64,000 nt of DNA from positions 416,001 to 480,000 of the forward strand of contig CAWBAT010000005.1 in assembly GCA_963786955.1 (NCBI GenBank). Reading direction: 5' to 3'. Shown here one piece after another: positions 6,253 through 51,230 of this stretch. The position numbers were made by a program, and so were the translations under genes. The stretch's first letter is position 1; each line of letters begins with the position of its first letter. The notes beneath the pieces are model-generated. The model did not search any database. It was not told where the DNA came from and saw only the letters and a program-made list of their open reading frames with translations. The DNA is from an uncultured Acidimicrobiia bacterium (GTDB lineage Bacteria; Acidobacteriota; Terriglobia; Versatilivoradales; Versatilivoraceae).

Positions 6253-6964
6253 AAGACATTTCCACATTCAAACCCCTGCCTATCGAGCATGTCAGAGATC
6301 GCGTGTTCTCTCCTTTTTTCTAATCCTATTCTTTTCTTTATTTCACGGCATTTCGAAAAGTACTGCTGCGACCAATGAGGCCTTCCGCTGTTCTTGGAAG
6401 ATTGTTCAATCTAGAGGGGCTTATCCCTTTTCCAGTATCGAATTGGATCAATCAGGAAACGGCCAGTTCCGTTTTCAGAAACTGGAAAGTTCGGTCATCA
6501 CTGTGGACTTCCATTTAAACCGTCCAAAGGTAGTTTCGCTCTACAATCTCTTTATTGAGTCGAATTTCCTGAACGAGTCAAAGAATTTCACCAGCCCAAG
6601 AAAAGTCGCTGACTTGGGAATGAAGACAATTCGCTTTGAAACAGGCAAGCAAACGCGAGAAGTGACATTCAATTTTACAGAAGACAAAAATCTTAGGGAG
6701 ATCAACAACTTCTTCGAAAACTTGGATGAACAAGAAAAATTCTTGTTTGAGCTAGAACTGGCATTGAAGCACGACCGGCTAGGGATTCCCAAGAGATTGG
6801 ATTTCCTGGAACGAGAGTTCAAGGCCAACAGGATTGTCGCGCCGGAGAGGTTTAGGCCAATTCTTGAAAAGATTAGCGAAGATGATTCGTTGATTAACCT
6901 GGCCCGGAAGGAAGCGCGGAAACTACTCTACAAGTTATCGAAGTTACAACCTGATGATAGCTGA
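6245..6964 (+). CDS. Hypothetical exported protein
   Basis: 239-aa ORF overlapping the ruvC stop; N-terminal hydrophobic segment; no family recognised. Confidence 0.7.
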   Translation: MVKRHFHIQTPAYRACQRSRVLSFFLILFFSLFHGISKSTAATNEAFRCSWKIVQSRGAYPFSSIELDQSGNGQFRFQKLESSVITVDFHLNRPKVVSLYNLFIESNFLNESKNFTSPRKVADLGMKTIRFETGKQTREVTFNFTEDKNLREINNFFENLDEQEKFLFELELALKHDRLGIPKRLDFLEREFKANRIVAPERFRPILEKISEDDSLINLARKEARKLLYKLSKLQPDDS

Positions 6965-7080
6965 TTTTTCGATACCGAAAAGCATAATAAACCTCGCTTA
7001 ATCAAAGATTTATAAAATTTGTATTCTAAGAATCTTGGTCGAAAAACGGTCCTTTAGCCCGGTTTTCGCGCCACCAGCGC

Positions 7081-7133
7081 TGCATGAGGGAATGCGGCCT
7101 ACAACCGCTGTAGGCATGACGCATTCTCAATGC
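7081..7133. repeat. GTAG-type REP-like hairpin
   Basis: GAATGCG GCCTACA accgc TGTAGGC atga CGCATTC nested inverted repeat. Confidence 0.5.
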
Positions 7134-7341
7134 TTCATCCCAACCCGGCGAACTACATTCCTCAGAACATAGTGTGTCTGTTTTCCACCTGTGGCGAGAG
7201 ATTCGGGTTAGGCTGGAGTTTAGGCATCACGCCAACGAGGCGGTCGCGAACCCAATGGTTAAGGGGACAGCTGCAGGCGTCTGTTTCTCCATTCGGCCAA
7301 TGGTAGATCCTGGGTTATTGAAGTCAAATCACCCTTGCTCG

Positions 7342-7391
7342 GTCAATTAAAACTGGTAATTAATTGACATCCTATTCAGATGTTCTACCAT
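7342..7391 (+). promoter_or_regulatory. sigma70-like promoter overlapped by a 9-9-9 inverted repeat
   Basis: TTGACA (7364)-N16-TACCAT (7386); GTCAATTAA-N9-TTAATTGAC covers the -35. Confidence 0.5.
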
Positions 7392-7442
7392 CATTAATTA
7401 GTAGAGAAAATGTTAAGAATCCAGCCGGAAGGGGGTAAGACG

Positions 7443-9542
7443 ATGCACGCTAAGCTGCTTCCCGTAATCATTTTCTGTCTCCTCTTCGCCGGCGCGGCAG
7501 GCCTTGCTGAAGATCTTCCCCAAGCTCGAATTCTTCGTGCCAGTTTGGTCGAAGGAGACGTGACTTATCAACGCCCCGATCTCGATCGCTGGATCGACTT
7601 AAGTGTCAATACCCCCTTGCTTGAAGGGGACAAAGTCTGGGTAGGAAATAACGGGAGAACCGAAATTGAATTTGAAGATGGAACGTTCCTCCGCTTGAAC
7701 TCTGACAGCATTGTCGAATTATCCCACTGGGCTCCCGCAGTGGCTCGGAACAAATCGAGATGCAGTTCGTTCGCGGCATTGGTTCTTTTGAGATTCAGCC
7801 GTCAGGGATGATATTTGTCATTAACACCCCGCTGTTTTCCATGCGGGTCAAAGATGCCGCAAGCTTTCGCGTTGACCTCGAGGAAAACGGGACCGGACGC
7901 ATGGCGGTGTTCGATGGCAGCATCGAAGTAGCCGGGGATAAAGCGCACCTCTATGTCCGCAAAGGGGAAATCGTCCAATTCCAGAGTGAAGACCCGGACC
8001 GGTATTTTCTCTCTGCGGATTACCAGCAGGATGATTGGGATCGCTGGAACGAAGAACGGACTGCTTATATTGCGAAGCGACCGGATCGGTACCACGATGG
8101 TGACGTCGGATGGACAACGGCGGATATGGATGACGCAGGGAATTGGTACACCGATTCCGAATATGGAAGGGTCTGGAGTCCCGGTCTGGGTGCCGACTGG
8201 ACTCCTTACCGAAACGGACGCTGGGTTTGGTATGAAGATCTCGGCTGGACATGGGTTTCCTACGAATCTTGGGGGTGGATCCCTTACCACTATGGCCGCT
8301 GGACTTATTTAACATCCTATGGCTGGAGCTGGGTACCGGGGCAACCAAATGCTCCGTGGTGTCCGGGAGCCGTCAGTTGGATCGAAGGACCTAACTGGAT
8401 CGGCTGGGTGCCTTTGGCGCCTTCCGAACCCTGGTCCGCATATTCTTCAGGCAATGTCTTTATCTCGAAAAACTACCGGTATCGGCATGGGCGTACTTGC
8501 CTCCCGCGCGACTCCTTTTTAAATGGAACTCCTGTGGGGAATTTTGATCCTCCGGCAGATCCCTCCCACGCAGGAAGAGTCCTTTCAGGTCAACCCCGCT
8601 ATGCACCCACAACTGCTAGCAGACTGCCAGTGGTTACAGGCGCTTCGACTTCACCCTCACGGGTGTACAATAATGCAGACTTGGAGTCTCGGCGACTCAT
8701 GCGGGAACGGACTCTGAACCTTCAGGGTGCGACCTCCGGGGCTTCTGTCTCGTCAACTCCGACAAGAGGAGCTCCCGACTCCACTGCCGGCAATGCGGCA
8801 ACAACTCTCAGACAGGAACCTCGCCAAACTATTATCTTCAACCGCAAATTCCGGGGGCGGGACAATGTCTGTGCAAACCTCCGCCAATGGGGTTCGTACT
8901 TACATTATACGTGGAAGTTCTTCAGAAACGACGGCTCGAGAAGAGCAGGCACGGCAGAAACCCAAGATCGGCGAGACAATCCCTCAAACAGTTCCAACAC
9001 GTGATGCTGCGGCCGGACCGAGCCTCCCAAATAGTCGATTTGCCCAGACCCCTCAGGACGTTTCGACCCGTTCGCGCAATTCAGGTGCATCAACCAACGT
9101 CATAATTGTTGGCTCCGATCAACCTTCCGGGAGATCGAATGAAATGACGAACTCAGCTCAAGACCGATATCCTGCCCAGCCGAGAAGTCGTGAGGCAGCT
9201 TCCCCTCGCTATAATTTCTACACTCCTCCAGGGGCTCCAGCTCCTGCGGGTGCCCAAGCAGGGCCTTCCTATTCTGCGCCTCGAACGGAATCTGTGAGCC
9301 CAGCCCGTTCCCAGCCGGTTTCAAATTCCCCCTCGACATCCAGGCCACCCATTAATTCCACGGGCGGTACGGTTTATCGGTCTCCAACTGTTTCGACTCC
9401 AAGCCCACCCAGTTACCAAGCCACCTTCGAGTCAGCCAGCCACAAGCAGTAGTAATTCTCGTTCGGCTTCACCGGGGACGGCTCGACTGCTGCAGCGAAT
9501 GCGGATTCACGCGGAAGCAGCGGCACGAAATCAAGCCGATAA
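7443..9542 (+). CDS. Exported FecR-like / DUF6600-like (Trp-Gly-rich repeat) protein with a long Ser/Pro/Thr-rich tail; frameshifted
   Basis: Signal peptide; VNTPLLEGD...GRTEIEFEDGTFLRL FecR-like domain; WTPYRNGRWVW...WGWIPYHYGRW...WSWVPG repeats; ORF pieces 7410..7811, 7760..9004, 8727..9452. End inferred. Confidence 0.75.
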
Positions 9543-9609
9543 AAAAGATCGCCCCTTTGATCCATCCAAATTCTGTAGCCAAGCTCGATGTTGTACGCAG
9601 GATCGTCGT

Positions 9610-9664
9610 TGTGGCCGGCTTCGGTGAAGCCGGCCTCTGGCCGGGATCGGCGATCCCGGCTACA
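9610..9664 (+). repeat. REP-like double hairpin family A, variant GGATC/GATCC (left island boundary)
   Basis: TGTGGCCGGCTTC GGT GAAGCCGGC ctctg GCCGGGATC GGC GATCCCGGCTACA. Confidence 0.85.
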
Positions 9665-9701
9665 GCATTTCTCGGAGGTCCGCATTGTCGTTCTCTCCCA
9701 G

Positions 9702-11810
9702 TTACTTCAGCCCGAATTTAGCGCTACCCACCACTTCAGCTCCGATCTTTATGTCAACCCTGTACTTACCGGGACTCAATGAAGACGAACCCAGGTTGTA
9801 CACATATTGACAGCCATTGTTCCGGAAGTTGGAACCGGTATCCGCGGAACCTGTGTAGAGACTTTCATTGATCACACCCGGTGCTGCACCATCGGTGCGG
9901 GTCAACACCAGAGTAGCTGCCGGGAGCGAGCAGTTTGATACCCCACCAAAGGTCAAGGTGAACTTTAGTGGAATGACACCGCGATTAGCGTTGAACATGC
10001 TAGAACCATCAAGATTGACTGGTTGCTGAATCGTGCCGACATAGGCGGGTCGAGCCACCGCGAATGGCGAGAAGGATGTCACGCTGCCACAGATAATGTT
10101 GTTGACTGGGTCCTGTGAAACCGTAGTGTCCACCCAAGCATTTCCTTCATAATGGAACAGCTTCAGTCCGTTTTCGTCACTAAACTGGCTTCCATAATTT
10201 ATGCACACCGTCACTGGCCCTGTGAAGGTAGCTGTAGTAGATAGGTTGTAATAGACTTCAGGGATACCCACTTTAAATCCGACAGGAACGTCTCCCGGCC
10301 CAGTTGGAGGGGAAGAACTGGTGGTTAGGGTGACGCTACCGGGAGTTGTTACATTGTTGAAAGCTAATTGAACAGGACTTTCTCCCGATGCAGTGTCTAC
10401 AGGTTGTGCAACAACCCCAGGACCCACGGAGTTTTCCAGATTTAACATCCATAGTTCTCTGCCTACTCCGGTTCCATCGTCTGCGCTGAAATACAACACG
10501 GGATCAGCGTTCACAAATGTATTTGGGAACGAAGATAGCTGACCTAACGCGATATCTTTGACCATCCAAGTGCCTGCCTCCGTGCTATCACTTCTCCACA
10601 ACTCCTGGCCATGGACGCCATCGTCTGCATAAAAATAGAGCAGGTTGTTCGCTACGACTGCTTCTATTCCGCCTGTAATCCCACCTCCCATCGGATTGAT
10701 GGCCTTGACGACCACGGTCCCTGCATCGGTACCATCGGTTCTCCACAAAGCCCCATTGTTACCATTGCCTTCAATGAACAACAGTGTTCCGTTTACGACT
10801 GGAAACGTATTAGGTCGAATATTATCTTTGACTTTTAAAGTCCCTGCAGGAGTCCCGTCGCTCTTCCACAGACCCCACCCGTTGGCGAAGGCTGAAAAGA
10901 AAACTGTGTTATTTAGGGAACCCACCCATTCTATATAACCAAACTGGCCAAGGAGAGTGGTCCCGGAACCTGTACCATCGCTTTTCCACAACTGCGAGTA
11001 AGAACCCCAAATGTAAGCGTTCATATACAGGGTCCCATTCACATTCAGTAAATCAATGTAATTGTTATCTGGTGGTTGATGGATGTCTGTTATCATTTGG
11101 GTACCAGTGACAGTGCCATCACTTTTCCATACCTCTCGGCCTTCGGCTAGATAGGTATGGTTGGCATCAAAGGAAGAGGCGAAATAGAACGATGGTCCAA
11201 TGGATACAAACGAAGCCGCATCCCCCCACGGACCCCACCTTGCTGTTCCTTCGGGGGTACCATCGGTTCTCCACAGTTCGTCACCATGTATGTGATCGTT
11301 CGAGTTGAAATACATTTTCCCATCGAAAACAAACATATGAACCTCTTCACCCCCGGACTCCACGCCACTACTTAGTGAACCCTCAATCCCTATGTTGATA
11401 TCCGTGAACAAGACTGTTCCTGAAGAGGTGCCGTCGCTCTTCCATATCTCGTAACCATGAACTCCATCGTTTGCCACAAAAAATAATGTCCCATTCAGAT
11501 TGGAAAAATGCGTCGGATAAGAATTGCTTTCTCCTGGATAGATGTCTTTGACCAATATTGTCCCAGCGGGGGTGCCATCACTCTTCCATAGCTCTCTGCC
11601 GTGAATCCCATCGTACGCCGAGAAATAGACAATGTTCCCAATTTTCAGAAAAGGGTGTGGGTCCGAATTGCCATTATTCTCGATCGTGGGATTGATATCT
11701 TTCAAGAAAAGTGGAGTTTGTGCCTGGGTTTTGGTGAGGGACAGAAACAGAATCCCCAGAATCCAAACTACATACATGATTTCTTTTGCATCTTGCATTT
11801 TCTTCGTCAT
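9702..11810 (-). CDS. Secreted ELWxxDGT-repeat protein with C-terminal PxKF-like domain
   Basis: About 8 (E/L)WKSDGT / LWRTDGT repeats, signal peptide, C-terminal GVIPLKFTL; AGGAGA RBS before the ATG at 11810. Confidence 0.9.
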   Translation of the reverse strand: MTKKMQDAKEIMYVVWILGILFLSLTKTQAQTPLFLKDINPTIENNGNSDPHPFLKIGNIVYFSAYDGIHGRELWKSDGTPAGTILVKDIYPGESNSYPTHFSNLNGTLFFVANDGVHGYEIWKSDGTSSGTVLFTDINIGIEGSLSSGVESGGEEVHMFVFDGKMYFNSNDHIHGDELWRTDGTPEGTARWGPWGDAASFVSIGPSFYFASSFDANHTYLAEGREVWKSDGTVTGTQMITDIHQPPDNNYIDLLNVNGTLYMNAYIWGSYSQLWKSDGTGSGTTLLGQFGYIEWVGSLNNTVFFSAFANGWGLWKSDGTPAGTLKVKDNIRPNTFPVVNGTLLFIEGNGNNGALWRTDGTDAGTVVVKAINPMGGGITGGIEAVVANNLLYFYADDGVHGQELWRSDSTEAGTWMVKDIALGQLSSFPNTFVNADPVLYFSADDGTGVGRELWMLNLENSVGPGVVAQPVDTASGESPVQLAFNNVTTPGSVTLTTSSSPPTGPGDVPVGFKVGIPEVYYNLSTTATFTGPVTVCINYGSQFSDENGLKLFHYEGNAWVDTTVSQDPVNNIICGSVTSFSPFAVARPAYVGTIQQPVNLDGSSMFNANRGVIPLKFTLTFGGVSNCSLPAATLVLTRTDGAAPGVINESLYTGSADTGSNFRNNGCQYVYNLGSSSLSPGKYRVDIKIGAEVVGSAKFGLK

Positions 11811-11900
11811 CTTAGTTCTCCTAATAGGGTTGATGGCAATAAACAATTTTGAAGACTTTCTGTTGCCATGGTTCTACGAATCATCACGAGAGCGCAGCAT

Positions 11901-12593
11901 TTATGGATTCGTCACGTCTATGGCGAAAGAAAAATAGTAGCTTCCCATGTCGAACTCAGTAGTATTTTTTGGTGTGGTGACAACTTTGACGAGCCTGCCA
12001 ATATTCTTTCTCTCGCCATTAGCTTGGATAGCAGTGGACTCGAATTTCCACTGATTACACTGATTTGTAGCTGGGACAACGCCTTTACAGGTAATCGTGG
12101 CTGGATCGGTTCCCGGTGAGAAGTTTCGACCGTCCATATTAATTCGATAATGAAAGCCACCGTACTCAAAACTTGGAAATAGTGGGCAAGTAACACTTGT
12201 CCCCACACCAATCATGTTCCGTATGTCGACATCATATTGGGTGCATTTGCAAATGAACCTCATTACCATTTGCTTATATACAAACGGGGGATTTGAAGTA
12301 GTGCCTGGAACTGAGTCGCGAAAGTCAATCAGTACAGTCCTGGTAGAAGAACTTGAACTGTCGGTGGCTAATTCCCAATCCCCAGTGCCCTTCTGGAAGT
12401 GCGATACTTGCGTTCTGGAATTCTTGTATGGACCAAGTTGGTCGCTCTGGATGCGCAAGGTGGGAGTCGTATTAAGTCCAACGCCTTCTATAGTGGTTGT
12501 GACAGTTATCTCTTTATTATTTTGTGCTACCGCAGTTAAAACTAAGGCTGAAAGGAGGAATAAGGACGCGAACAGCATTTTTGTTCTCAACAT
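11901..12593 (-). CDS. Secreted Cys-containing hypothetical protein (paralog A)
   Basis: Signal peptide, AAGGAGA RBS; aligns end to end with 12805..13479 (PTLRIQSDQ, RFICKCTQ, CPLFPSF, DMGSYYFSF.IDVTNP). Confidence 0.88.
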   Translation of the reverse strand: MLRTKMLFASLFLLSALVLTAVAQNNKEITVTTTIEGVGLNTTPTLRIQSDQLGPYKNSRTQVSHFQKGTGDWELATDSSSSSTRTVLIDFRDSVPGTTSNPPFVYKQMVMRFICKCTQYDVDIRNMIGVGTSVTCPLFPSFEYGGFHYRINMDGRNFSPGTDPATITCKGVVPATNQCNQWKFESTAIQANGERKNIGRLVKVVTTPKNTTEFDMGSYYFSFAIDVTNP

Positions 12594-12644
12594 GTGAGAG
12601 TCTCCTTAATTAAAATTAAAAGCGAAGTGCAGAATCTGCACATG

Positions 12645-12695
12645 GATTCGAATTTGTGAATAACAACTTCGTAAAGCTAATCAAGCGATCATCTG
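12645..12695 (-). promoter_or_regulatory. Conserved 51-bp non-coding leader block (copy A)
   Basis: Identical at 48 of 51 nt to 13530-13580. Confidence 0.6.
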
Positions 12696-12759
12696 TATCC
12701 GGCCTTCCGCCGGCGGGCGGATGGCGAGCCCCTGACCGGGGTCAACGACCCCTGCTACA
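12694..12759 (+). repeat. REP-like family A, degenerate copy
   Basis: TGTATCCGG...TGACCGGGGTCAACGACCCCTGCTACA; first hairpin replaced by CCGCC-GGCG-GGCGG. Confidence 0.7.
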
Positions 12760-12804
12760 ACAGATGTTCGGGAACTTCTGCCACTTATCACTGGAGCGCG
12801 ATAA

Positions 12805-13479
12805 TTACGGGTTTGTCACGTCTATGGTAAAAGAGAAATAATAGCTGCCCATATCCGTCTCAACATGTTTTGGTTTACTGACCACTTTGAGCAGCCTGCC
12901 TACATTCTTAGTCTCACCACCATAATCGCGAGAAGGTTCGATCTTCCACTGGATACATTGGTTTGTCGATGAACTAGTACCTAGGCAGGTAACCTTGGCA
13001 CGGTCGGTTCCTATTGAGGAATTTACGCCATCCATATCAATTCGATATTGATCCCCATTGAACTGGAAACTTGGAAACAGTGGGCAATACCCAATCTCGT
13101 TCAAACTCATGTACCGCATGTCAAAGCCATTGTTTTGAGTACATTTGCAGATGAATCTGGCCTGGATTTGGCCATAAGTAAAGGGGGCCGTAGGAGTTGT
13201 CCCCTCCACAGGTTCGCGAAAATCAAAAAGAACTGTTCTTGTGGAGCCAGTGGTGACTAACTCCCAATCTCCGTACGACTGGAGGTGCGATACTACCGCA
13301 CCTGAGTTCTTGTACTGACCGGCCTGGTCGCTTTGTATGCGCAAGGTGGGCAATCTATCGACTCCAAAGCCTTCTATCATCGTTGCAACCGGCGTATCTT
13401 TATTCTTTTGTCCTAAGGCCGTCATAACCATGGCGGAGCAAAGGAATAGGGAAGCAAACAACATTTTTCTTATTAACAT
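12805..13479 (-). CDS. Secreted Cys-containing hypothetical protein (paralog B)
   Basis: Tandem paralog of 11901..12593; signal peptide; RBS. Confidence 0.88.
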   Translation of the reverse strand: MLIRKMLFASLFLCSAMVMTALGQKNKDTPVATMIEGFGVDRLPTLRIQSDQAGQYKNSGAVVSHLQSYGDWELVTTGSTRTVLFDFREPVEGTTPTAPFTYGQIQARFICKCTQNNGFDMRYMSLNEIGYCPLFPSFQFNGDQYRIDMDGVNSSIGTDRAKVTCLGTSSSTNQCIQWKIEPSRDYGGETKNVGRLLKVVSKPKHVETDMGSYYFSFTIDVTNP

Positions 13480-13529
13480 TGGGGATTCTCCTTAATTGAA
13501 AAAAAAGTGATCAGCTGAATCTGAGCTTC

Positions 13530-13580
13530 GATTCGAATTTGTGAACAACAACTGCGTGAAGCTAATCAAGCGATCATCTG
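13530..13580 (-). promoter_or_regulatory. Conserved 51-bp non-coding leader block (copy B)
   Basis: GATTCGAATTTGTGAAcAACAACTgCGTgAAGCTAATCAAGCGATCATCTG, matching 12645-12695. Confidence 0.6.
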
Positions 13581-13634
13581 CAGCCGGCATCGGTGAAGCC
13601 GGCCCCTTGACCGGGGTCAACGACCCCGGCTACA
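13579..13634 (+). repeat. REP-like family A copy
   Basis: TGCAGCCGGCATCGGTGAAGCCGGCCCCTTGACCGGGGTCAACGACCCCGGCTACA; extra half-sites near 13653 and 13727. Confidence 0.85.
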
Positions 13635-13782
13635 ACGCTTCAGGGGTTAGTCGATCCCGGCTACAACACTTCCAGGGTCTACGACCCCATGCCCGCATTG
13701 CCGGGGCCAATGAACCGAGGCGGTGCTGTAGCCGGGATCACTAATTCCACCCATGTGAAAGACGTTTTCATAACTCCCCCCA

Positions 13783-13832
13783 GGGACGGACCGCCGGACC
13801 GTCCGCGGCGCGCTCGGCGAGCACGCCCTACC
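13783..13832. repeat. Second REP-like double hairpin (GGTAG type)
   Basis: GGACGG accgccgga CCGTCC and GCGCGCTC ggc GAGCACGC CCTACC. Confidence 0.55.
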
Positions 13833-14014
13833 AGGTATCTTCCCAAAACCAACGCATTACACCTTACCAACGAGCGCGCTCAAGTCCGGTCCCGTCTTGG
13901 CAGGGGATAAATGAACCCACCCCTGCACCCCTCCATTGGAGGGGAGTTTTCAAAAAGACCTGTGATATGATTTAGTTCAATTTTTCATTCCTTCGAATGT
14001 CATGGTTCTGTCTA

Positions 14015-14043
14015 ATAAGAGTCGGGACAACTGATTTTGTGAC
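14015..14043 (-). promoter_or_regulatory. Candidate ECF sigma promoter driving the leftward secreted-protein genes
   Basis: Minus strand GTCACAAAAT-cagttgtccc-GACTCTTAT; identical boxes and 10-bp spacer length at 14590-14618 (+). Confidence 0.7.
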
Positions 14044-14088
14044 AGGCGCGCGAAAAATAATTGTATTGACCTGGAGAAACTCCGAAAA

Positions 14089-14605
14089 GTGGCTGTGGAC
14101 GAGACTCAGCTAATCGATGATTACGGCCCGCGAATCCTTTATATTGCGCTGCGCCGCCTTCGTGACCGGACCCTTGCCGAGGAAGTCGCTCAGGAAACCC
14201 TCACCTTAGTCATTCAAGCCCTCCGAGAAGATCGTGTGCGTGAGGAGGCTAAGTTGCCAGGGTATATTTTCACGGTGGCGAACAATCTCATTCTAAAGGG
14301 TCTTCGCGAGCGCTCACGGAAAGAGGAGCTGGATTCGAAACCAGGGCCTGAGGAGCAAGATGCGTGGGTCGATGATCATGATGCAGGGCTTCTCATAGAA
14401 GAAGCAGAGACAACAAGTCCGGCACGCTTTAGCTCAATTGGACTCCAGTGATTACGATCTTCTGAATGAGATATTCGTCCATGAGAAATCGCTTGAGGAG
14501 ATTTCCAAAGGATTGGGGGTTTCTTATGCCGCGTTGCGAAAAAGGAAGTCGAGAGCAATCGAGCGGCTGAAAAAATTATTTCTCGGAGAGTCACAAAATA
14601 GGTAG
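14089..14605 (+). CDS. ECF-type RNA polymerase sigma factor (frameshifted near 14400-14480)
   Basis: Region 2: LAEEVAQETL...GYIFTVANN. Region 4 in a shifted frame: SLEEISKGLGVSYAALRKRKSRAIERLKK...ESQNR*. Confidence 0.88.
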
Positions 14606-14618
14606 TAAAGACTCTTAT
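14590..14618 (+). promoter_or_regulatory. Candidate ECF promoter embedded in the sigma 3' end, upstream of the anti-sigma
   Basis: GTCACAAAAT-aggtagtaaa-GACTCTTAT, 25 nt before the anti-sigma ATG at 14644. Confidence 0.7.
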
Positions 14619-14643
14619 CAATGAAAAGCTTGGTGGAATTGAA

Positions 14644-15421
14644 ATGAACTGCCAACAAGTGGAAGAACAGGAAGTGATCGAACGATATCTGGCTGAGAAA
14701 CTCTCGGAACAAGAATCCGCCGCCTTTGAAGAGCACTTTTTGGGATGCAAGCAGTGCTTCGAGGAATTGCGGCTTCACCACGCTGCGGCTGCTGAAATGC
14801 GCCAGCGGGCTACTCCTAAAGCGCCAGATGCCGCTCACCCAGTGGAATCAGGCCTGGAAAGTGAGTTTGGCTGTGGCTGCGGTTCTCGTCTTGGGATTTG
14901 TCTCGGTAATGGTCCTCAATCGTGGTCGCATCCCAGAACCCCAGCAGTCCAGTGTGGTTCCGCCTGATCGCCATGAGGAATTATTCAAAGAACTGGCCGA
15001 GATCAAGACGCCCCCTTTATATGCCCCCTCGACGATCCGTGGCAGCAAGTCTGATCGAGCGCTCGAGAAGTTCAGGCAAGGCATGGAAGATTACCAGAAA
15101 GGAAATTACTTGCAGGCGGCTGGCGTCCTTCAAGAAGCCTCTGCGCTCGATCCCAGCCACCTGCCAAGCCGTTTTTATCTAGGGATCTCTCTGCTCATGG
15201 CAAATCAGACCGATGAAGCCATCGGGCAACTTTCCAAGCTGGCCGGTCCTGAGACGGACCCCTACCAGGATGAGTCGCATTGGTATCTCTCTAAAGCCTA
15301 TTTCCGAAAGAAGGATTTAGAAAATGCACGCAAGGAATTGGAGTTAGTAGCCGCTCTGAATCGGCAACATGCATCTGAAGCGCGACAAGTCTTGGAACGG
15401 TTGAAGTCATTGGGGAAATAG
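14644..15421 (+). CDS. Anti-sigma factor: zf-HC2 + TM helix + extracytoplasmic TPR domain (one frameshift near 14820)
   Basis: FEEHFLGCKQC (HxxxCxxC); SLAVAAVLVLGFVSVMVL TM helix; linker PSTIRGS; TPR helices (FYLGISLL, HWYLSKAY). Confidence 0.88.
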
Positions 15422-15453
15422 TTGTAGCGGTCTGTGCATTTGCCCAGGAGTTC

Positions 15454-15505
15454 GTAGTACCGCCTTCAGGTGGTAATGTTCCGGGCCGGCTATAGTCGGG
15501 ACTAC
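15454..15505. repeat. Degenerate GTAG REP-like pair
   Basis: GTAGTACCGCCTTCAGGTGGTA...CCGGCTATAGTCGGGACTAC. Confidence 0.45.
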
Positions 15506-15538
15506 AAACTTGATTCAGGCTAAATCATGTAGTGACGA

Positions 15539-15605
15539 CCCCGCTCTACCCCACCAGCCCCTCTCCCACACGGAGGAGAGCGGGTGGCCGAAGGCGAGGT
15601 GAGGG
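15539..15605. repeat. CCCTCTCCC palindromic repeat, second copy
   Basis: CCCCTCTCC...GGAGAG...GGCCGAAGGCGAGGTGAGGG, resembling 2652-2710. Confidence 0.55.
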
Positions 15606-15745
15606 AGGTGTTGACCATAAGTTGCTGGCAATTGGTCGTCTCTTTAAGACGTCTTGGCCTTGGTCCGGTGGCATTGAGAAAGCCCATAAAGATATTTATG
15701 ATCAGCGCCTGGCACAAAGGATCGCGGCTGAGATTACTTAATTGA

Positions 15746-18700
15746 ATGAGTTTGCCAGAAAACCAGCATTTCTCTTTCCCTTCATTCTTGGGTTTCTACT
15801 GTGTAACCCCACCAAGGCAGCTCCCATTGTCTATCCCCCCAGCCAATCGATTGTTTGAAAATGACACCTACCAATCGGCGATTCAGTCTCTACAACAGGG
15901 CGATAGGGTCACATTACAAAACCTTATCAACCGAGATCCCCTTATTGCCAGGAAAGTCCTGATTAAACTCCTGCGCCAGCCAGACAAACTTGAAGACGGC
16001 CCGGGTCTATGGCAGAACTTTTTCCATCGAGCTGTGACCTGGAATTGGAGAAGCCCTTCTTCGATTTTTTCATCAGCGACTGATTCCGATATCCGGAAGA
16101 AACTGCTCAATTCAGTCGAACTGATCACAGACGCAGAATATGCAATCCAACACGTTCAACGGATCGACGACTTTGAGAATCTTATCAAGGATCAGGGCCT
16201 CATCATCTTCGCCAGGCAGCAGTGGAATTCCACGCCATAGGTTTCATGGATGGGCAGGCCTATAGCCTCGCCCGATCGGCGATATACGGAGGAAGGTTTC
16301 CTTATATGGATTCCGGGCTGGAGACGATGGAAGAGGCGCGAGCTCTTTATGAGAAGTCGGAAAATCTGCGCGGCCAGGTCTTTTGCCTGGTGCAGTTGGC
16401 ACACCTAAATTATCAGCGCCTCGAAGAAAAGAGCAAGGCGGCCCAGCTTTATTTGCAGGCTTGTGAGAAGGGGAAAATCGAAGGGACCCCTATTCTCGGA
16501 TATTACCTCAGTCAATATAGCTGGATGACGGATAAGCCTCCCGTAGACTGGCTGAAAGAGTCCAGTGAGCTACGTGAAAATGAACCCGGACTGAGGAGCA
16601 CAAGGTATCAGATGCTTTTGAAGCAGGACACGCCCGTTGAGAAATACCTGGCGTTGTTGGAACAGGAGACCGACCCCGTTCTCAAGATTCGCGCTCATTG
16701 GAATTTGTTTCAGAACCTTTCGTATAACGACCGGCAAACTCAGGCCATGGAAGAGGCTGATGCTGCTATCACATTGGCGCGGCGACAAGCGTACGACATG
16801 TCAGCCTACGGAGGGTCGTTCCATCCGGCAGTGCCGTCCATGCTGATCGCACGGGCGCAATCAAAGATACAACTGGGGATGCTCCGCGAAGCCGAGAGCG
16901 ATTGTCTGGAAGCGATTGTCCTACTTGAATAGCAGGCCTCCCAGACTGATGCGAATTACATCGAACCGGTGAAGATTACTGCTCTCGATCGACTCAGCAA
17001 GATTTACGGAGCACTCGGAGAGTACCCTTCGGCAATCGAAAAAGCTCGTGAATCTTTAAAGCTATCCCAGCCAAGAAACGCAGGAGATTCGACCTACTAT
17101 TCGTATGAGTTCCTGGCTGAAGTGCATGGTGAGATGGGCCAATTGCGTCCGGCTGAGGACTACCTGGAAAAAGCCGCTAGCATGCCCTTCCCATACAATC
17201 CTGCTCCAATCCACATGGCTGAGTTACATCTCAATTTCCAACGTTACGAAGAAGCCCTAAGGGACCTGGACCGAGCGCAGCAGGGACTTGATGAGTTCTT
17301 TCAAGATCCGCCCTCAGGCCCGACCATTCCTCTGGGGGGTTACTCAACGACTTCGGCTCTTGACTGAAATTTGGCTTCAACTTGGCGAACCTGAAAAGGC
17401 GCTGGTAACGGCAAAGGAGACTGGAGGAGCGGAAACATCCGGTTGAGCAGGGAATGCTGGGAATGGCTCTGATGGCATTGGGGCGTTATCCCGAGGCGGA
17501 GAAATACTTTCAGGCTCGCTTGGACTCATTGAAGGGAGCAGCCTGGCCCCAGAAGGAAGTGGATGCGGTGCTGAACCTGGGAAAGATCTATCAGGCAGCT
17601 GAAGCGATCTGGAGAGGCCAGCCGTTACTTCCAGAGGGCATTGGAATTGTATCGCCAGATGGGGGACCGGCGCGGCGAGCTGGAGGTCCTGCTCGAGATC
17701 GCTCAGATGGCATACAAACTGAATGACCTTCGGACATCGGAACAGAGTTCCCTCCAAGCGCTAGGTCTGGCCAACGAACTCCAGGATTCACAGGGGGTAT
17801 GGTCGGCTCAATACCGCCTAGCCAAAATCGCTTTGTCCCAAGGGCAAAAACAAAAGGCTATCGAACATCTGGAAGCGTCGGTAGATGCAGTGGAAGACGG
17901 TTTCCGGAAAAATCAAGGTGGATGTTTACAAAACCGGTTTTCTCGAAGACAAGGTTCAGGTGTTCGACGAATTGATCGCTCTGCTCGGCCCCGCTGATCC
18001 GGCTAAGGCTTTTTATTACGCTGAAAAACGGCGGGCGCGGGCTTTTCTTGAATCCAGCCAAAGAGCCGGACTTCTCTACGACTGCCATTCCCGATGATCT
18101 CAGGCTTCGAAAAGAGGCGATGGAAGCTCGATTGGTCGGCAAGCAGAAAGCCTTGCTGGAGCAGTTTTCCAAGCCTGCCAGCCAAAGAAACTCGGCTTTG
18201 ATTCAGTCGTTTCAAAATGATTTAAAGCAAATTCGGGAAGAGCACACACAATTAATTAAGACCATCGAGCTGGATACATCCACTGGAACAGTTGCCCGAA
18301 AAGAGATCTTCCCTCTAACTGCCAGCCAGGTTCAGCAGACTGTGTTGAGGCCCGGGCAAGCCCTGTTGGAATACGTTCGTTCGAGACCGGGAAACCTATC
18401 TCTTTCTGGTCACCAGGCAGGCCTGCAAATTTTACCGCTTGCCCATAGCCCGGCAGGAACTCGCTCACCGTATTGAAAAACTGCAGTTGCCCTTCAGCCA
18501 GTTCCAGGAAGGAAGAATTGACTTGGCCCACCTCAGTTACGACGTTCAGCTAAGCCATGGGCTCTACCGGCTGCTTTTCCAGCCCATTGAGTCAGCGCTT
18601 CGGCCAGGGACTGAAATCATCGTCGTTCCGGATGACGTCTTAAATTATCTGCCCTTCGAAAGCCTGTCACGCACAGGAGAATTGAGGCCTGCCACGGCTG

Positions 18701-19521
18701 ATTTGCCGTTTGCGGAATATCGGGATGTTGACTGGCTGGTCAAACGCTTCAGCTTTGTTTATGCCCTCTCGGCAAGTTCGCTGCGTCTGCGCCTGGAGCA
18801 GCCTAGCTCCACTCAACGGCAGTTGCTGGCATTCGGTAATCCCTCGGTGGGGAGCTCTCAAGAAAGCGACATCCAACGAGTCGTCCTGCGTGGAAGTCTC
18901 AAGACTGGTGAGCATTTTCCCGAGTTCCCTTCCCTGCCGCAGGCAGCCAAAGAAAGTAGAAAGATCGGCGAGCTCATGTCGGGCAAGCTCAGGACCAAAG
19001 TCTTTTTGGGCGATCAGGCCACGGAGAGCCAGTTCTTCAAGGAGGCTCCCTCTGCAGACTACCTTCATTTTGCCGTACACTCCATGGTCAATCAGGAAGA
19101 ACCTTATTACTCTGCACTCGTGCTTGCCCCGGAGCAGCACTCAGACGGCTTGCTGCAGGCCTACGAAATCGTGAATACGCGGTTACAGTCACACCTCGTC
19201 ACTTTGAGCGGCTGCGAGACTGCCTTGGGTAAGCTGAAGAGGGGAGAGGGGATGCTCGGCTTGCAACGAGCCTTCCTGCAGGCTGGAGCGGAATCTGTGG
19301 TCGTCAGCTTATGGAGTGTTGAAGATTCTACAGCGGACTTCATGGAAGCGTTTTACAAGAACATCCGGGACGGTCAAAGCCTTTCAGTGGCGCTTCGAAA
19401 CGCTAAACTGAAATACCTGGAACGAGCGCTCGCGCTTGGCGGTGGCCAGCACTTCTCATTAAGTCACCCGTTTTTCTGGGCGCCTTTTGTGTTGACCACA
19501 ACCGCGCTTGACAGTCGATGA
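15746..19521 (+). CDS. TPR-CHAT domain (caspase-like, peptidase clan CD) protein; several frameshifts and one in-frame TAG
   Basis: TPR helices in ORFs across 16222..17997; AFYYAEKRRARAFLE; CHAT motifs IVVPDDVLNYLPFESL, LLAFGNP, HFAVHS (His), LSGCETALG (Cys), AFLQAGAESVVVSLWSV, HPFFWAPFVL. Confidence 0.88.
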
Positions 19522-19663
19522 ATTTAGGTAGTAGGTTAAGAATCATCGGAACATTTGCAGAAAGGGAGCCCGCCCCTCTTTTCAAAAGGCCCGAACTGAG
19601 AGTGGTTTTGAAGTCTCTCAGCTCATCTGCTACATGATAGACATGATATAGAGGAATACAGGG

Positions 19664-19862
19664 CTAGTACTAAGTTGCGGAAACCCGTGCTGTAGCCGGT
19701 TGTAGCCGGCCTCGTTGAGGCCGGCCCTTGACCGGGTTCAGCGACCCCGGCTACAAAGCGACTGTAGCGCAGACCTGATTTCTAGGTCTGCGGCATTGAA
19801 TCTTGAGTGGTGCATTATGCTACATTCAAAGCCGCAGAGGCAGAAAGCGCCTCTGCGCTACA
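19664..19862 (+). repeat. Repeat mosaic: MITE left end + family A (19701-19755) + family B REP pair (19763-19862)
   Basis: CTAGTACTAAGTTG; TGTAGCCGGCCTC...CCGGCTACA; TGTAGCGCAGACC...GGTCTGCG and CGCAGAGGC...GCCTCTGCGCTACA. Confidence 0.8.
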
Positions 19863-20006
19863 ACTACACCGCACAAAAACCTTTATGTCATCGCACCATT
19901 GACTGGAGTAACAGGACGAATTTGGAGTCTTTCCGGATGTGTCGGGGCCTGCGAGTTGACGGAAATCAGTCCGGAATCGGCGATCCTGGGGACAACAGGG
20001 CGTCGC

Positions 20007-20061
20007 TGTAGCCGCCCTCGGTGAGGCCGGCCCTTGACCGGGGTCAACGACCCCGGCTACA
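20007..20061 (+). repeat. REP-like family A copy abutting the TonB receptor RBS
   Basis: TGTAGCCGCCCTCGGTGAGGCCGGCCCTTGACCGGGGTCAACGACCCCGGCTACA followed by GAGGAGG and the ATG at 20078. Confidence 0.85.
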
Positions 20062-20077
20062 GCAGAGGAGGGAATCT

Positions 20078-23000
20078 ATGCCGCGTTTGTTTCTCGTCTT
20101 CGCGTTGTTCGCTGTCTCAACTTCCATTTTCTCTCAAACCCTCGATCGGGCCAGTGTTAGCGGCCGCGTGACTGATGAGTCAGGCGCTGTAGTCGCCGGA
20201 TGCATCGATCCTACTGGTTAACGAAGAAACAAATCATCGGCAGACAACAATTTCCGGTAAGACAGGAGATTTCGATTTCCCCTTTGTCACAACTGGACGT
20301 TATGTCTTAAGCGTACAGGCCAAAGACTTCCCCTTGCTAAAGATTGACGGGCTTCGGTTAGCCTCTAATCAAAATCTGAACCTCCCCATCACTCTTAAAG
20401 TCGGGCCGCTCGAGACAAATATCACCGTCACCTCGATACCCAATCACATTGATACCAGCAGCGCTACAGTGCAGCATGTGATTTCAGAAAATGAATTCAA
20501 AGACATGCCGATCTTTAGCAATGGCTATGTCCGAGGTGTCCTTTATACGCTCCCCTTGTTGGTGCCTGGCGCAAACATGGTCGGTACAAACAGCCCACAG
20601 GGGGGATTTGGTCACAACATCTATGGAAAAGGAGTCTCGATCAATGGCTCACCAGTGGCCGTCAGTTGGTTTTACCTTTGACGGCATTAGTAACAACCAG
20701 TTTGGTGATCTGGGACGGTGGTTCGGGAACAGTCGGTCCAAATCCGGATGCGCTGGGCGAATTCTCTGTCTTGACGAACACTTTTAAGGCTGAAAACGGG
20801 AACTACCCGGTCATCGTCAACCTTCAAACCAAATCTGGCACCAATACACTCCATGGCCAGGTGCGAGGGATTTATCAAGACCCAAAATTGAGCGCCCGCG
20901 ATTTCTTTGCGTTGGATGACAATCAAGGGCAAATCATAAGAACTTGGGGCGTCCAGCTTTCCGGCCCCGTGGTCATTCCCAAGTTGTACAATGGAAAAAA
21001 CAAAACTCTTTTCTTTGTAGACCTGGAAAGATCCTGGCGGCTGTAGCCATTTACGAGACATAGCAGCCGACAATCTCGCTGCCACAGCGATCCGGCGACT
21101 TTTCCCAGTTGCCACAAGGCCTATGGCCCAAAGATCCGCTGACCGGTGAAGTCTTCCCCGGCGGCCGCATCCCAGACAATCGGATTCTGCCGCAATCTCA
21201 GCACTACATCGACCAGTTCATGGCCAAGCCAAATCGAGAGAGCCAGTGGGTGGCAATGGGTCATCTAATCTGCAATGGGACTGTACTGACACTGCGCATC
21301 GACCAGCAGTTTTCAGCCAACGACACTTTAAGCGGGAGTCTCCTCTACAGCCACCAAAACAATGATGCTGTCTTCGGTCCAGTCATTGACACTACATATC
21401 ACGTCTTCAACCCGGGAAATAATCTCGCTCTGCATTACGCTCATCAGTTCTCTCCTCAGGCGGTCAATTCGATAACCTTTGGCCGAAGCCATTTCAATTC
21501 CAGTACATCCTGGTAAATGGCCAGTTTAATCAGGTGGATTTAACCCAGTATGGATTCAACATTCATCAAGACATGTCAGGTCCCACCGGTTTCCCACATA
21601 TACTCCTGCCCAGCACAAGAAACTATTTTAATCCCGGAGGAGAGCAAGAGGCAGGGAATGATGATGTATGGACATTAAGAGACGACTTTGCCTTCAGCCA
21701 TGGTCATCATGCGCTGAAGTTTGGCGCTGATTTTCGGTGGTGGCGGTCCGAAAAAGTGAACAGCCGGAATGGGTATGCCCACCTTCCTTTTCCTGGATCA
21801 AAATCCCTATGGCAGCGGGAATGATGTAGCGGACCTGCTCCTTGGAATTCCACTCGATTATTACCAGGGGGCGCCCTTCGCAGACCGCCCGCGCCGAAAT
21901 CTTTTCGCGGCCTATTTTCAAGACGATTTCAAACTACGCTCAGATTTGACCCTCAATATTGGATTGCGTTATGAGCTGAATGGAGTCTGGACTAGCGCGG
22001 ACGGGAAAAACGCTTTTTTCCGACCCGGTGTGCAAAGCAGGATGTTTCCAGAATGCGCCTCCTGGAATGTTATTTCCCGGTGATGTGGACCCCTCATCAG
22101 GCTCCAAACTAGGCTTTGCTGCCTATCCTACGGATTATAATAATTTCGCTCCGAGAATCGGGCTGGCTTATTTACCTTCTTCGGGCAATCCCTTTCTGAG
22201 AAAGCTGTTCGGCTCGATGGGCGATACTTCGATCCGCGTAGGATATGGCATTTACTACTTTCCCAGCCGTGGCGGGGCGGCCGATTTCTGGTTCAGTTCA
22301 ATTCCTCCCTGGTCGTTTTTCGTGAACCGCTACACGGACCAACTCCATAATTCGGGTGGGACCTTTGCCAATCCTTGGGGAAGCAACCCGGATCCCTTCG
22401 CATCTCCAATCTCTCATCGTGAATTCAGCCTTCCGATCCAAGGACTCACCGATCATGAAGCTAACCTCAGGGAGCCTTACCAGCAACAATGGACATTTTC
22501 CGTGCAACGGCAGTTGCCGCAGAACTTTATTCTCGATTTAGCTTACCTGGGAAATCACGCTGTTCATCTTCACCGAACTTATGAAGTGAACCCGGGACTT
22601 TTGACCGCCGATGCGAATCCTTTTAACGCAGATTCCAGACGCCAATATCAGGATTTTGCTCAAATTCCCGGTTACGCCAGCGACGGGATGTCCAGCTACA
22701 ATGCTTTCCAGGTTCGCCTGAATCGCCGCTTTACTTCCCATTTTATGCTCAATGCCCATTACGTTTGGTCCAAAACCATGGATAACGCGGAAGGGGGCCC
22801 ACCTCAGGTCTTTAGCTACGCGGATCGAGATGCGAATCCTTGGGCCCGGGCAAATGCCGACAGCCGGAACCAATTCGTATTGTATGGGGTCTGGGATCTT
22901 CCCCAAGTAAAATACAATAAGTTTCTCGACAAAGTGGCTTCAGGCTGGCAGGTCAGCGGGATTGTGCGAATGGCGTCTGGGATCCCTTATAATTTTCGTA

Positions 23001-23438
23001 ATGATTTTGATTCGACGCTGCGTGGCATTTCCCCGGGATCTCCAGACCTCATAGCCCCCTTTCGAAAACTTGACCCACGGCAGGTCCATACTTTTACATT
23101 GCCGAATGGTAGGACGGTGACCGGCAATTTCCTCTTTGATCCAACTGTTTTTCGAACCGTCTTCCCTAAGAGTGTTGAAGAGGCTCGGCTTGGAAATCTC
23201 GGCCGAAACGTTTTTACCGGGCCTGGAGTCAATAATGTCGATCTAAGCTTGCTCAAGGAGATTGTGTTGAAGGATCGTCAGCGTCTCGACTTCCGCGTAG
23301 ACTTGGTCAATGTGTTCAATCACGCTCAGTGTGACTTTCCACTACTATACCCAAGATATTGTCAGTTTCCAATTTGGATCCACTGCTAGTACCACGGGGC
23401 CCAGACAAATCCAGCTGTATCTCAGATATAGTTTTTGA
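20078..23438 (+). CDS. Acidobacteria-type TonB-dependent receptor (carboxypeptidase-reg-like N-domain); multiple frameshifts
   Basis: Signal peptide; SGRVTDESGAVV; TKSGTNTLHG; AAYFQDDFK..LTLNIGLRYE; NNFAPRIGLAY; GNLGRNVFTGPG; terminal PRQIQLYLRYSF*. Confidence 0.88.
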
Positions 23439-51159: not shown

Positions 51160-51230
51160 GGATTTTGTTCAGTAATTTCCAATCACAAGCCCTATTCGAC
51201 GTGGTTCAATTCTAATCGGATCATGTCCGT

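Follow-up and report, generated by a model that had tools for sequence, protein, structure and literature searches.

In a 64,000-nucleotide stretch of DNA from an uncultured acidobacterial genome (contig CAWBAT010000005.1, positions 416,001 to 480,000; hereafter the window), consecutive genes on one strand at 14089-19521 encode a sigma factor of extracytoplasmic function (ECF) type, a zinc-binding anti-sigma factor (ZAS) with a candidate transmembrane helix, and a TPR-CHAT protein with an export signal, and a receptor-like gene comes next. On balance, we favor the reading that these genes specify a three-protein regulated-proteolysis switch for the ECF sigma factor, often linked to an outer-membrane receptor-like gene, which would be the split counterpart of the fused anti-sigma factor DdvA of Myxococcus xanthus. 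Judging from the sequences and from structure prediction, the CHAT protein probably frees the sigma factor by cutting the anti-sigma factor. The evidence consists of the domain content of the genes, the recurrence of the CHAT/anti-sigma pair in other bacteria, and a predicted complex in which conserved residues of both proteins meet at the protease active site.

Components of the cluster

Four co-oriented genes span 14089-23389 of the window, each of them split into frame pieces:

14089..14605, + strand: ECF-type sigma factor gene (Sigma70_r2 and Sigma70_r4, Pfam)
14644..15421, + strand: anti-sigma factor gene (zf-HC2 and TPR_19/TPR_16/TPR_2, Pfam; family alignments)
15742..19521, + strand: putative TPR-CHAT protease gene with export signal (CHAT and TPR families, Pfam; alignment to the relative P0053)
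20078..23389, + strand: TonB-dependent-receptor-like outer-membrane protein gene (CarboxypepD_reg and OMP_b-brl_4, Pfam)

A Pfam scan of 11 open reading frame (ORF) pieces confirms the same-strand series of sigma, anti-sigma and TPR-CHAT genes that a preliminary description of this DNA had proposed. The sigma factor gene starts with a GTG at 14089 or 14095, and its pieces match Sigma70_r2 (5.3e-11, piece 14035-14451) and Sigma70_r4/r4_2 (2.1e-07 for Sigma70_r4, piece 14399-14605), which is the layout of ECF (group IV) factors, with regions 2 and 4 alone in about 170-200 residues. In a frameshift-aware alignment, 83/189 residues are identical to the intact sigma factor of a paralogous cluster in the same genome, whose 189-aa open frame scores 84.3 bits with the TIGR02937 sigma70-ECF model (cut-off of 42.9).

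The anti-sigma gene starts 38 bases past the sigma stop and encodes approximately 259 aa when read through. Its pieces match zf-HC2 (14602-14967; 1.4e-04, 22.3 bits against a cut-off of 22.2) and TPR_19 (14678-15421; 7.2e-10), while no FecR family match was found on them by Pfam. The zinc ligands are Cys3 (in MNC) plus an H-x3-C-x2-C arrangement, HFLGCKQC, at 14734-14757. A 19-residue hydrophobic stretch, VSLAVAAVLVLGFVSVMVL, at 14861-14917 is the candidate transmembrane helix, judged by hydrophobicity and found at the same aligned position in all relatives. Beyond it, the conserved motif PPLYAPSTIRG (15011-15043; family form P-P-x-Y-x4-[IL]-R-G) is predicted to be periplasmic and sits between a variable linker and the TPR domain, with Arg132 and Gly133 at its end. 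When 8000 candidates were scored with the paralog as the query, 52 database clusters of relatives passed E ≤1e-3, and one of the relatives, P0011, is identical to the window protein at 138/264 positions (frameshift-aware alignment). In an alignment of 45 anti-sigma factors, which was also made in a 30-member version, Cys3, His31, Cys35, Cys38 and Arg132 are invariant, and Pro124 and Gly133 are at least 90% conserved. We rejected the idea that the Arg-Gly site is universal to CHAT-linked anti-sigma factors: the Arg is present in 45/45 sequences of the TPR type and in 5/5 from Gemmatimonadaceae, but the rule fails in 27 sequences of the Acidobacteriaceae/Bryobacteraceae type. The N-terminal domain of DdvA (8rlz_A) was likewise set aside as a match to the anti-sigma factor, as its E-value of 0.14 is too weak to use.

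The TPR-CHAT gene encodes 1255 residues when read through. Piece 18349-19521 matches CHAT at 6.1e-63 (213.4 bits against a cut-off of 24) over model positions 4-286 of 289, and TPR families match four further pieces of the locus. Both catalytic motifs that the preliminary description had reported as retained are present, HFAVHS at 19066-19083 and LSGCET at 19204-19221, which places the catalytic His codon at 19078-19080 and the Cys codon at 19213-19215; the family-invariant strand LPFSQFQEGRIDLAHLSYD lies at 18487-18543. The His and Cys columns (H244 and C289) are invariant in 115 aligned CHAT sequences, and both residues are kept in 39/40 CHAT domains linked by neighborhood to an anti-sigma gene, the single exception looking like a frame problem. 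A search with the 390-residue CHAT piece returned 401 longer proteins at E ≤1e-30, including the intact 1256-aa P0053, which is 93% identical to the window over the CHAT domain. When an AlphaFold2 model of this piece (predicted local distance difference test score, pLDDT, of 91.6; predicted template modeling score of 0.91) is compared by Foldseek, the matches include Csx29 (3.7e-16; template modeling score of 0.65 by query), DdvA (8rot_A, 5.9e-14), separase (from 1.7e-10) and gingipain R (4.7e-05), as well as Craspase, SAVED-CHAT and the separase entries 5u1t and 7nj1. A profile of 26 full-length relatives retrieves TPR proteins from the PDB, and the sole CHAT chain among the 60 matches listed is 8rot_B/8rw5 (4.4e-07); 8rot and 8rw5 are titled as anti-sigma DdvA in the fold library. 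A single-sequence PDB search with the paralog CHAT protein gave nothing at E ≤0.01. By sequence and model, the window CHAT is a caspase/separase-like domain with a His/Cys dyad, and its proteolytic activity is predicted.

Export of the CHAT protein is indicated by its N-terminus. The gene starts with a TTG at 15742, in a different frame from the ATG at 15746, and its first 35 codons, which lie in a frame that is not joined to the rest in the ORF list, encode a signal peptide matching that of P0053 (about 15742-15816), with an Arg-Lys n-region, a hydrophobic core and an A-x-A-like end. Sec-type signal peptides are found on the five closest full-length relatives (P0053, P0054, P0055, P0057 and P0060) and lipoboxes on most CHAT proteins of a second locus layout (type B, below), such that most neighborhood-linked CHAT proteins begin with one or the other, in keeping with the extracytoplasmic setting suggested by the preliminary description. 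Its further suggestion that the system is independent of CRISPR is supported as well: the NCBIfam Csx29 model (NF041237) reaches 18.5 bits against a cut-off of 300, no Cas family match was found by Pfam among the proteins scanned around the locus, an NCBIfam scan of the locus proteins gave generic names only, and PADLOC, run on six proteins rather than on the whole window, matched only its generic "TPR repeats containing protein" model, on the paralog CHAT.

The fourth gene had been called a TonB receptor, and this call stands in part. Its product, in seven frame pieces, has a signal peptide, a CarboxypepD_reg domain (9.3e-10) and an OMP_b-brl_4 beta-barrel that is matched by five colinear pieces (model positions 2-64, 81-232, 237-328, 332-411 and 414-814 of 838). 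Because Pfam reports neither a Plug nor an STN domain for these pieces and the match to TonB_dep_Rec_b-barrel is sub-threshold (25.6 vs. 27 bits), "TonB-receptor-like" is the safe wording.

Conservation of the module and the predicted contact

The paralogous cluster (L017; G000:C8:570000-589999, genes at 6335-15724) has the same order of sigma, anti-sigma, TPR-CHAT and receptor-like genes as the window, and the proteins of the two clusters are 38-56% identical. Here, the stop of the sigma gene and the start of the anti-sigma gene (271 aa) overlap in ATGA, the TPR-CHAT gene has a 1330-aa open frame with one break near the C-terminus, and the receptor-like gene is in pieces. The genome, at 5.65 Mb, contains only 3 CHAT loci. 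The third (L108; G000:C6:543000-560000) is a TPR-CHAT gene consisting of same-frame ORFs at 7579-10122 (848 aa) and 10171-11442 (424 aa), with no sigma or anti-sigma gene of this kind nearby, and thus not every TPR-CHAT protein is part of such a module.

To place the window among its relatives, we used two samples of other genomes. In a pattern scan of one genome per species with two N-terminal anti-sigma motifs (206 stretches, 128 relatives, best 80 kept), a CHAT gene lies downstream on the same strand in 38/62 loci having at least 4.5 kb of downstream sequence. These 38 loci come from Acidobacteriaceae, Bryobacteraceae, Solibacteraceae, Vicinamibacteria, Gemmatimonadaceae and others; in the same scan, Aminicenantes/Saccharicenans loci have a downstream CHAT gene in 0/13 cases. 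In an independent sample, the anti-sigma profile was run on 301 genomes of the phylum at E ≤1e-25, with matches in 17 genomes (12/186 genera, own genome included), and 20/21 matches outside the genome of the window were examined for CHAT. In 16/20 of these loci, the anti-sigma gene has a CHAT gene no more than 3.5 kb away, either downstream on the same strand (5), divergent (8) or convergent (3). In a 17th locus it is 7.6 kb away, and one of the three CHAT-less loci ends at a contig end. In two divergent loci, sigma-sized ORFs (183 and 184 aa), recognized by size alone, precede the anti-sigma gene. Since the genome of the window has only three CHAT loci in 5.65 Mb, linkage of this order is far beyond chance, and the preliminary description's statement that similar triads occur in other bacteria is borne out. 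The family is found in Acidobacteriota and Gemmatimonadota, including cultured soil bacteria such as Paracidobacterium acidisoli 4G-K13 and Acidobacterium sp. S8.

We distinguish three layouts. Type A, as in the window, has a TPR-bearing anti-sigma factor. In type B, an anti-sigma factor with a beta-rich periplasmic domain is followed by a gene of about 280 aa and then by a lipoprotein CHAT of about 900 aa, while the third layout is a Gemmatimonadaceae type. The extra type B gene (250-300 aa) is seen between the anti-sigma and lipoprotein CHAT genes in approximately 25 loci (for example, L041:7740-8642 and L099:7635-8540); it has no Pfam match and a weak NCBIfam match to "choice-of-anchor P" (30.9 bits against a cut-off of 27), and it could be a fourth component or the substrate in that type.

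Within type A, the link to the receptor-like gene is recurrent, not universal. In both the window and the paralogous cluster, the receptor-like gene comes after CHAT. In four Vicinamibacteria-like loci (L023, L028, L029 and L031), the order is instead sigma, anti-sigma, receptor-like barrel and TPR-CHAT, with the receptor-like gene between anti-sigma and CHAT. Because these four loci carry the same four components in a different order, the receptor-like protein probably belongs to the type A system. Otherwise, what lies downstream of CHAT differs between loci (CN_hydrolase, Kelch, S41 peptidase, unknown).

A model of the CHAT/anti-sigma complex had been put forward in the preliminary description as a way of checking its proposal, and we obtained one with relatives' proteins, pairing residues 470-1285 of P0054, which is 79% identical to the window CHAT domain, with residues 92-267, the periplasmic part, of P0011. 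The scores of 0.61, 0.62 and 0.63 (median 0.62) compare with 0.00 for the best of 3 controls; in a benchmark, a score of this size is reached by 116/157 solved complexes and by 2/215 mismatched pairs. At least 81% of contacts are shared by the runs, and the partner has a pLDDT of 81. On the protease side, the predicted interface comprises His1139-Ser1140 (the catalytic His), Gly1183 beside Cys1184, and the family-invariant stretch 947-958. On the anti-sigma side, it comprises residues 124-127 and 129-136, which hold the motif with Arg132-Gly133, together with TPR residues 172-174, 206-207 and 240-241. The prediction supports binding of the protease to the anti-sigma factor at the active site. 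No solved complex resembles the P0054/P0011 pair by sequence; separase-securin and Csx29-Csx30 complexes exist, and the prediction may therefore carry some learned likeness to them.

Sequence damage and flanking elements

The preliminary description had cautioned that the intactness of the cluster depends on read correction, pointing to an in-frame TAG at 16930-16932. The TAG is there, but the damage was understated, as the three genes also contain 13 frameshifts, 12 of which are single extra bases. The sigma gene has one extra base at about 14404, which puts regions 2 and 4 in two frames, and the anti-sigma gene has one at about 14824-14851 (frameshift-aware alignment). In the CHAT gene, alignment to P0053 reveals, besides the TAG, ten extra bases and the loss of one base and of one codon; the first break is an extra C within a C run, and the TAG falls at a variable column where 4/26 relatives have Gln. 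P0053 aligns end to end with 15742-19518, with 1110/1255 residues identical (88%) and without a large deletion.

We consider it likely that most of these lesions are errors of long-read assembly. The source assembly has 9 contigs without N and a total of 5.65 Mb, and in it a class-I aminoacyl-tRNA synthetase gene outside the window (G000:C8:391967-393615) is split over frames with internal stops while rpoB is whole (1439-aa open frame), which suggests that indel errors are patchy. In public reads, the stretch is represented in one run (0.05 share of words), a sediment metagenome with contigs of relatives that are 85-95% alike. Short-read contigs from this related population have 1, 1, 2 and 0 gaps where the window has 1, 1, 2 and 0 frameshifts, a comparison of gap numbers only, which cannot tell whether the frameshifts exist in the window's own organism and in which uncovered parts say nothing. 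Assembly error is favored because 12/13 frameshifts are insertions, there is a single nonsense codon and no large deletion, the tRNA synthetase gene is broken, and the short-read gaps match.

The alternative, which we judge unlikely, is that the lesions are real and that the cluster is a decaying pseudogene array, with the paralogous cluster on another contig doing the work. Such a paralogous cluster does exist, 13 frameshifts and one TAG within 5.4 kb are many, and rpoB and several long neighboring genes are intact. Natural decay in bacteria is reportedly biased to deletions (Mira, Ochman and Moran 2001), and 12 extra bases against 1 missing base is the opposite bias. Nor does decay sit well with one nonsense codon beside 13 frameshifts, or with 88% identity to an intact ortholog in all segments and the preservation of every catalytic, zinc-binding and motif residue. 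In addition, the same kind of breakage affects an essential tRNA synthetase gene, and the CHAT and receptor genes of the supposedly working paralogous cluster also have frame breaks. The window locus needs polishing before its gene calls are trusted; it is poor as a locus and informative as a member of a family. Elsewhere in the window, at 47997-51168 on the minus strand, three consecutive overlapping ORFs (372, 346 and 387 aa) look like a long gene split by frameshifts.

Repeats are present on both sides of the first three genes:

13580..13740, no strand assigned: REP-like palindromic repeats upstream of the sigma gene (families D1/D2, inverted pairs I2/I3)
19701-19755 and 20007-20061: further copies of the REP-like palindromic repeats, between the CHAT and receptor-like genes

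These repeats, with the core TGTAGCCGG...CCGGCTACA and copies that are 67-100% alike, bracket the sigma, anti-sigma and CHAT genes. Divergent from the sigma gene, minus-strand ORFs at 9702-13479 of the window (714, 230 and 224 aa) have no Pfam match at E ≤0.001, and the flanking genes scanned by Pfam are Memo-like or without any match. Two candidate regulatory sequences were rejected. The word TTTGTGACAG, common to the regions upstream of the window and paralog sigma genes, occurs in the window at the frequency expected by chance (4 found, 4.01 expected), and its excess in the paralog locus is mild (4 found, 1.07 expected). A sigma-70 consensus scan gave 2 sites vs. 3.5 in shuffles, and we see no evidence of function for the sigma-70-like site at 15674-15702, 40 bases before the CHAT start.

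Proposed mechanism, alternatives and precedents

In the switch that we favor, the sigma factor would be held at the inner membrane by the zinc-binding (Cys/His/Cys/Cys) domain of the anti-sigma factor, which would cross the membrane once and show its P-P-x-Y-x4-[IL]-R-G motif and small TPR domain in the periplasm. The next gene would supply a Sec-exported TPR-CHAT cysteine protease of about 1250 residues, which would dock on the TPR domain of the anti-sigma factor and seat the motif in its His/Cys active site. A periplasmic or outer-membrane signal, perhaps arriving via the receptor-like protein or sensed by the long TPR array, would license the cut. CHAT would then act as the site-1 protease, probably cutting after the invariant Arg, and an RseP-type M50 protease would clear the membrane stub and release the sigma factor. 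A gene for an M50 protease (1.1e-62; 462-aa open frame) is present in the genome. In this scheme we infer the cleavage itself, the cut site, the signal, the direction of control and what the receptor-like protein does. More tentatively, a dedicated pathway with a secreted CHAT site-1 protease that cuts after the invariant Arg may be widespread in Acidobacteriota and Gemmatimonadota, with one branch wired to the receptor-like protein as a caspase-driven analogue of FecIRA.

In addition to the state of the locus, which ranks among the lowest 5% of the genome's 10-kb windows when cover by ORFs of at least 250 aa is compared (0.333 vs. a median of 0.707) and where local decay may be true and the TAG at 16930 real, several points weigh against a proteolytic switch. 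The site-1 role is a prediction for every member of the family. The score of the complex is the model's own confidence, the alignments were unpaired, and of the first chain only the C-terminal 816 residues were used; that P0054 and P0011 are probably encoded side by side is something we infer from their listings, both of which give a longest contig of 44,004 bases. By the same model, a motif lying in the active site could equally be a substrate or a pseudosubstrate inhibitor. Among the 27 sequences of the larger Acidobacteriaceae/Bryobacteraceae type, about half have Arg/Lys at the site (alignment read by eye). Signal peptides were judged by hydrophobicity and eye, without a dedicated predictor. 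Finally, no shared ECF-type promoter motif was found upstream of the sigma genes: a bipartite k-mer search of 11 upstream regions reached at best 3/11, and shuffles reached 3-4.

The main rival, improbable in our estimate, takes the motif to be a pseudosubstrate that would anchor CHAT at the inner membrane in an inactive state, until a signal frees the protease for other envelope targets; the anti-sigma factor itself would be degraded by DegS/Prc-type and then M50 proteases. Securin binds in the active site of separase and thereby holds it. The separase entries 5u1t and 7nj1 among the fold matches make the parallel concrete, the predicted placement of the motif at the catalytic His/Cys would suit an inhibitor equally, and the many TPR contacts (172-174, 206-207 and 240-241) suggest stable docking over transient binding of a substrate. 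What argues for a substrate is that the invariant Arg-Gly lies in a variable juxtamembrane linker, where known pathways make site-1 cuts, and that the three locus types have no other conserved candidate substrate gene in common.

There is a small chance that CHAT and the receptor-like protein are merely members of the sigma regulon, serving envelope stress or nutrient acquisition and taking no part in control. ECF sigma factors commonly transcribe neighboring genes, and the variety of genes downstream of CHAT would be consistent with such an output. This explanation does not account for the persistence of the link when CHAT is divergent (8) or convergent (3) among the 16 nearby cases, nor for a complex prediction that passed while its controls stayed at 0.00, with family-invariant residues of both proteins forming the predicted interface. 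Least probable of all is a defense regulator that, like DdvA-DdvS, would sense phage attack in the periplasm and turn on an anti-phage island: the closest characterized system does control a CBASS/CRISPR island (PMC11506125, in the part available) and CHAT proteases recur in defense, as the Craspase and SAVED-CHAT fold matches illustrate, but the six proteins given to PADLOC (the whole window was not scanned for defense) gave only the generic TPR match, and the recurrent partner is a TonB-receptor-like protein among scanned flanking genes that are Memo-like or without a Pfam match.

When the proposed switch is compared to characterized systems, the closest precedent is DdvA, not Csx29/Csx30. 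According to the available text of PMC11506125, DdvA is a single 991-residue protein that joins a zinc domain, a transmembrane helix and a TPR-CHAT region; the authors' proposal is that DdvA cleaves its own linker in trans and that RseP acts next; they could not trigger the cleavage. The likeness extends to an ECF sigma factor (DdvS) bound by an N-terminal Cys/His/Cys/Cys zinc domain, followed by one transmembrane helix that has a candidate counterpart here (PMC11506125 and PMC6061681, in their available parts), to a periplasmic TPR-CHAT region with a His/Cys dyad, and to the proposed order of a CHAT site-1 cut in the juxtamembrane linker and then RseP. Unlike DdvA, which is one polypeptide thought to act in trans within a dimer, the anti-sigma factor (about 260 aa) and the protease (about 1250 aa) are separate here: the anti-sigma gene has its own stop at 15419-15421, a 320-base gap follows, the protease has a separate signal peptide, and intact relatives have the same split. 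DdvA-type CHAT is also characterized by an active site that lacks the three-helix motif and is completed by a dimer partner. DdvA controls a CBASS/CRISPR island in the account available, whereas here a TonB-receptor-like gene is the recurrent neighbor. Acidobacteriota and Gemmatimonadota are where we find the split form; DdvA-like fused forms are reported, in the same portion of PMC11506125, only in Myxococcota and one Comamonas.

In type III-E systems, Csx29, also a TPR-CHAT protein, cuts Csx30, the inhibitor of the ECF-like CASP-sigma, and the preliminary description's account of this release of a sigma factor agrees with the available part of PMC10028731. As in Craspase, the proposal is that a TPR-CHAT protein cuts the inhibitor of an ECF-type sigma factor and so lifts its inhibition, and Csx29 is the best fold match. 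As described there, however, Craspase is a cytoplasmic system that is bound to Cas7-11 and that target RNA activates, and Csx30 is not a ZAS/transmembrane protein, whereas the protease here would be exported by its signal peptide, involves no Cas protein and falls short of the Csx29 model. A further comparison is with the ECF54 group of Actinobacteria, whose sigma genes lie near those of TPR-CHAT, subtilase and CarboxypepD_reg proteins and for which control by proteolysis has been put forward (Huang et al. 2015; Casas-Pastor et al. 2021, PMC7826278; PMC8999054; accessible portions). In PMC7826278, as far as its text was available, ECF54 is 100% actinobacterial and without a recognizable anti-sigma factor. 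By that description it differs from the present system, which has a ZAS-TPR anti-sigma factor with a candidate transmembrane helix and in which CarboxypepD_reg heads an outer-membrane barrel. The supplement of PMC7826278 names CHAT only under ECF54 in the portion available, which runs at least to ECF280, with a later mention possible.

The proposed scheme is also like RseA/DegS/RseP in having a membrane anti-sigma factor, a periplasmic site-1 cut and an M50 site-2 cut, and like FecI/FecR/FecA with Prc in having an outer-membrane receptor gene in the cluster. Unlike in RseA and FecIRA, the site-1 enzyme would be an operon-encoded cysteine protease of clan CD, not a serine protease encoded elsewhere; and unlike in FecIRA, the anti-sigma factor does not resemble FecR and no STN domain is seen in the receptor-like protein. 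A full-text literature search gave no description of a separate exported CHAT protease together with a ZAS anti-sigma factor in Acidobacteriota or Gemmatimonadota.

ECF sigma factors are a major signaling device of bacteria, and how the anti-sigma factor is switched off is a key question for most of their groups. DdvA is the only studied anti-sigma factor with a caspase-like domain, and there CHAT is fused to its presumed substrate. The split family places protease and substrate in two proteins with a conserved candidate cut site, and ordinary biochemistry can test the arrangement. If the proposed switch is true, a direct in-trans test of the self-cleavage model for DdvA becomes possible, and the few site-1 proteases on record would be joined by a cysteine protease of clan CD.

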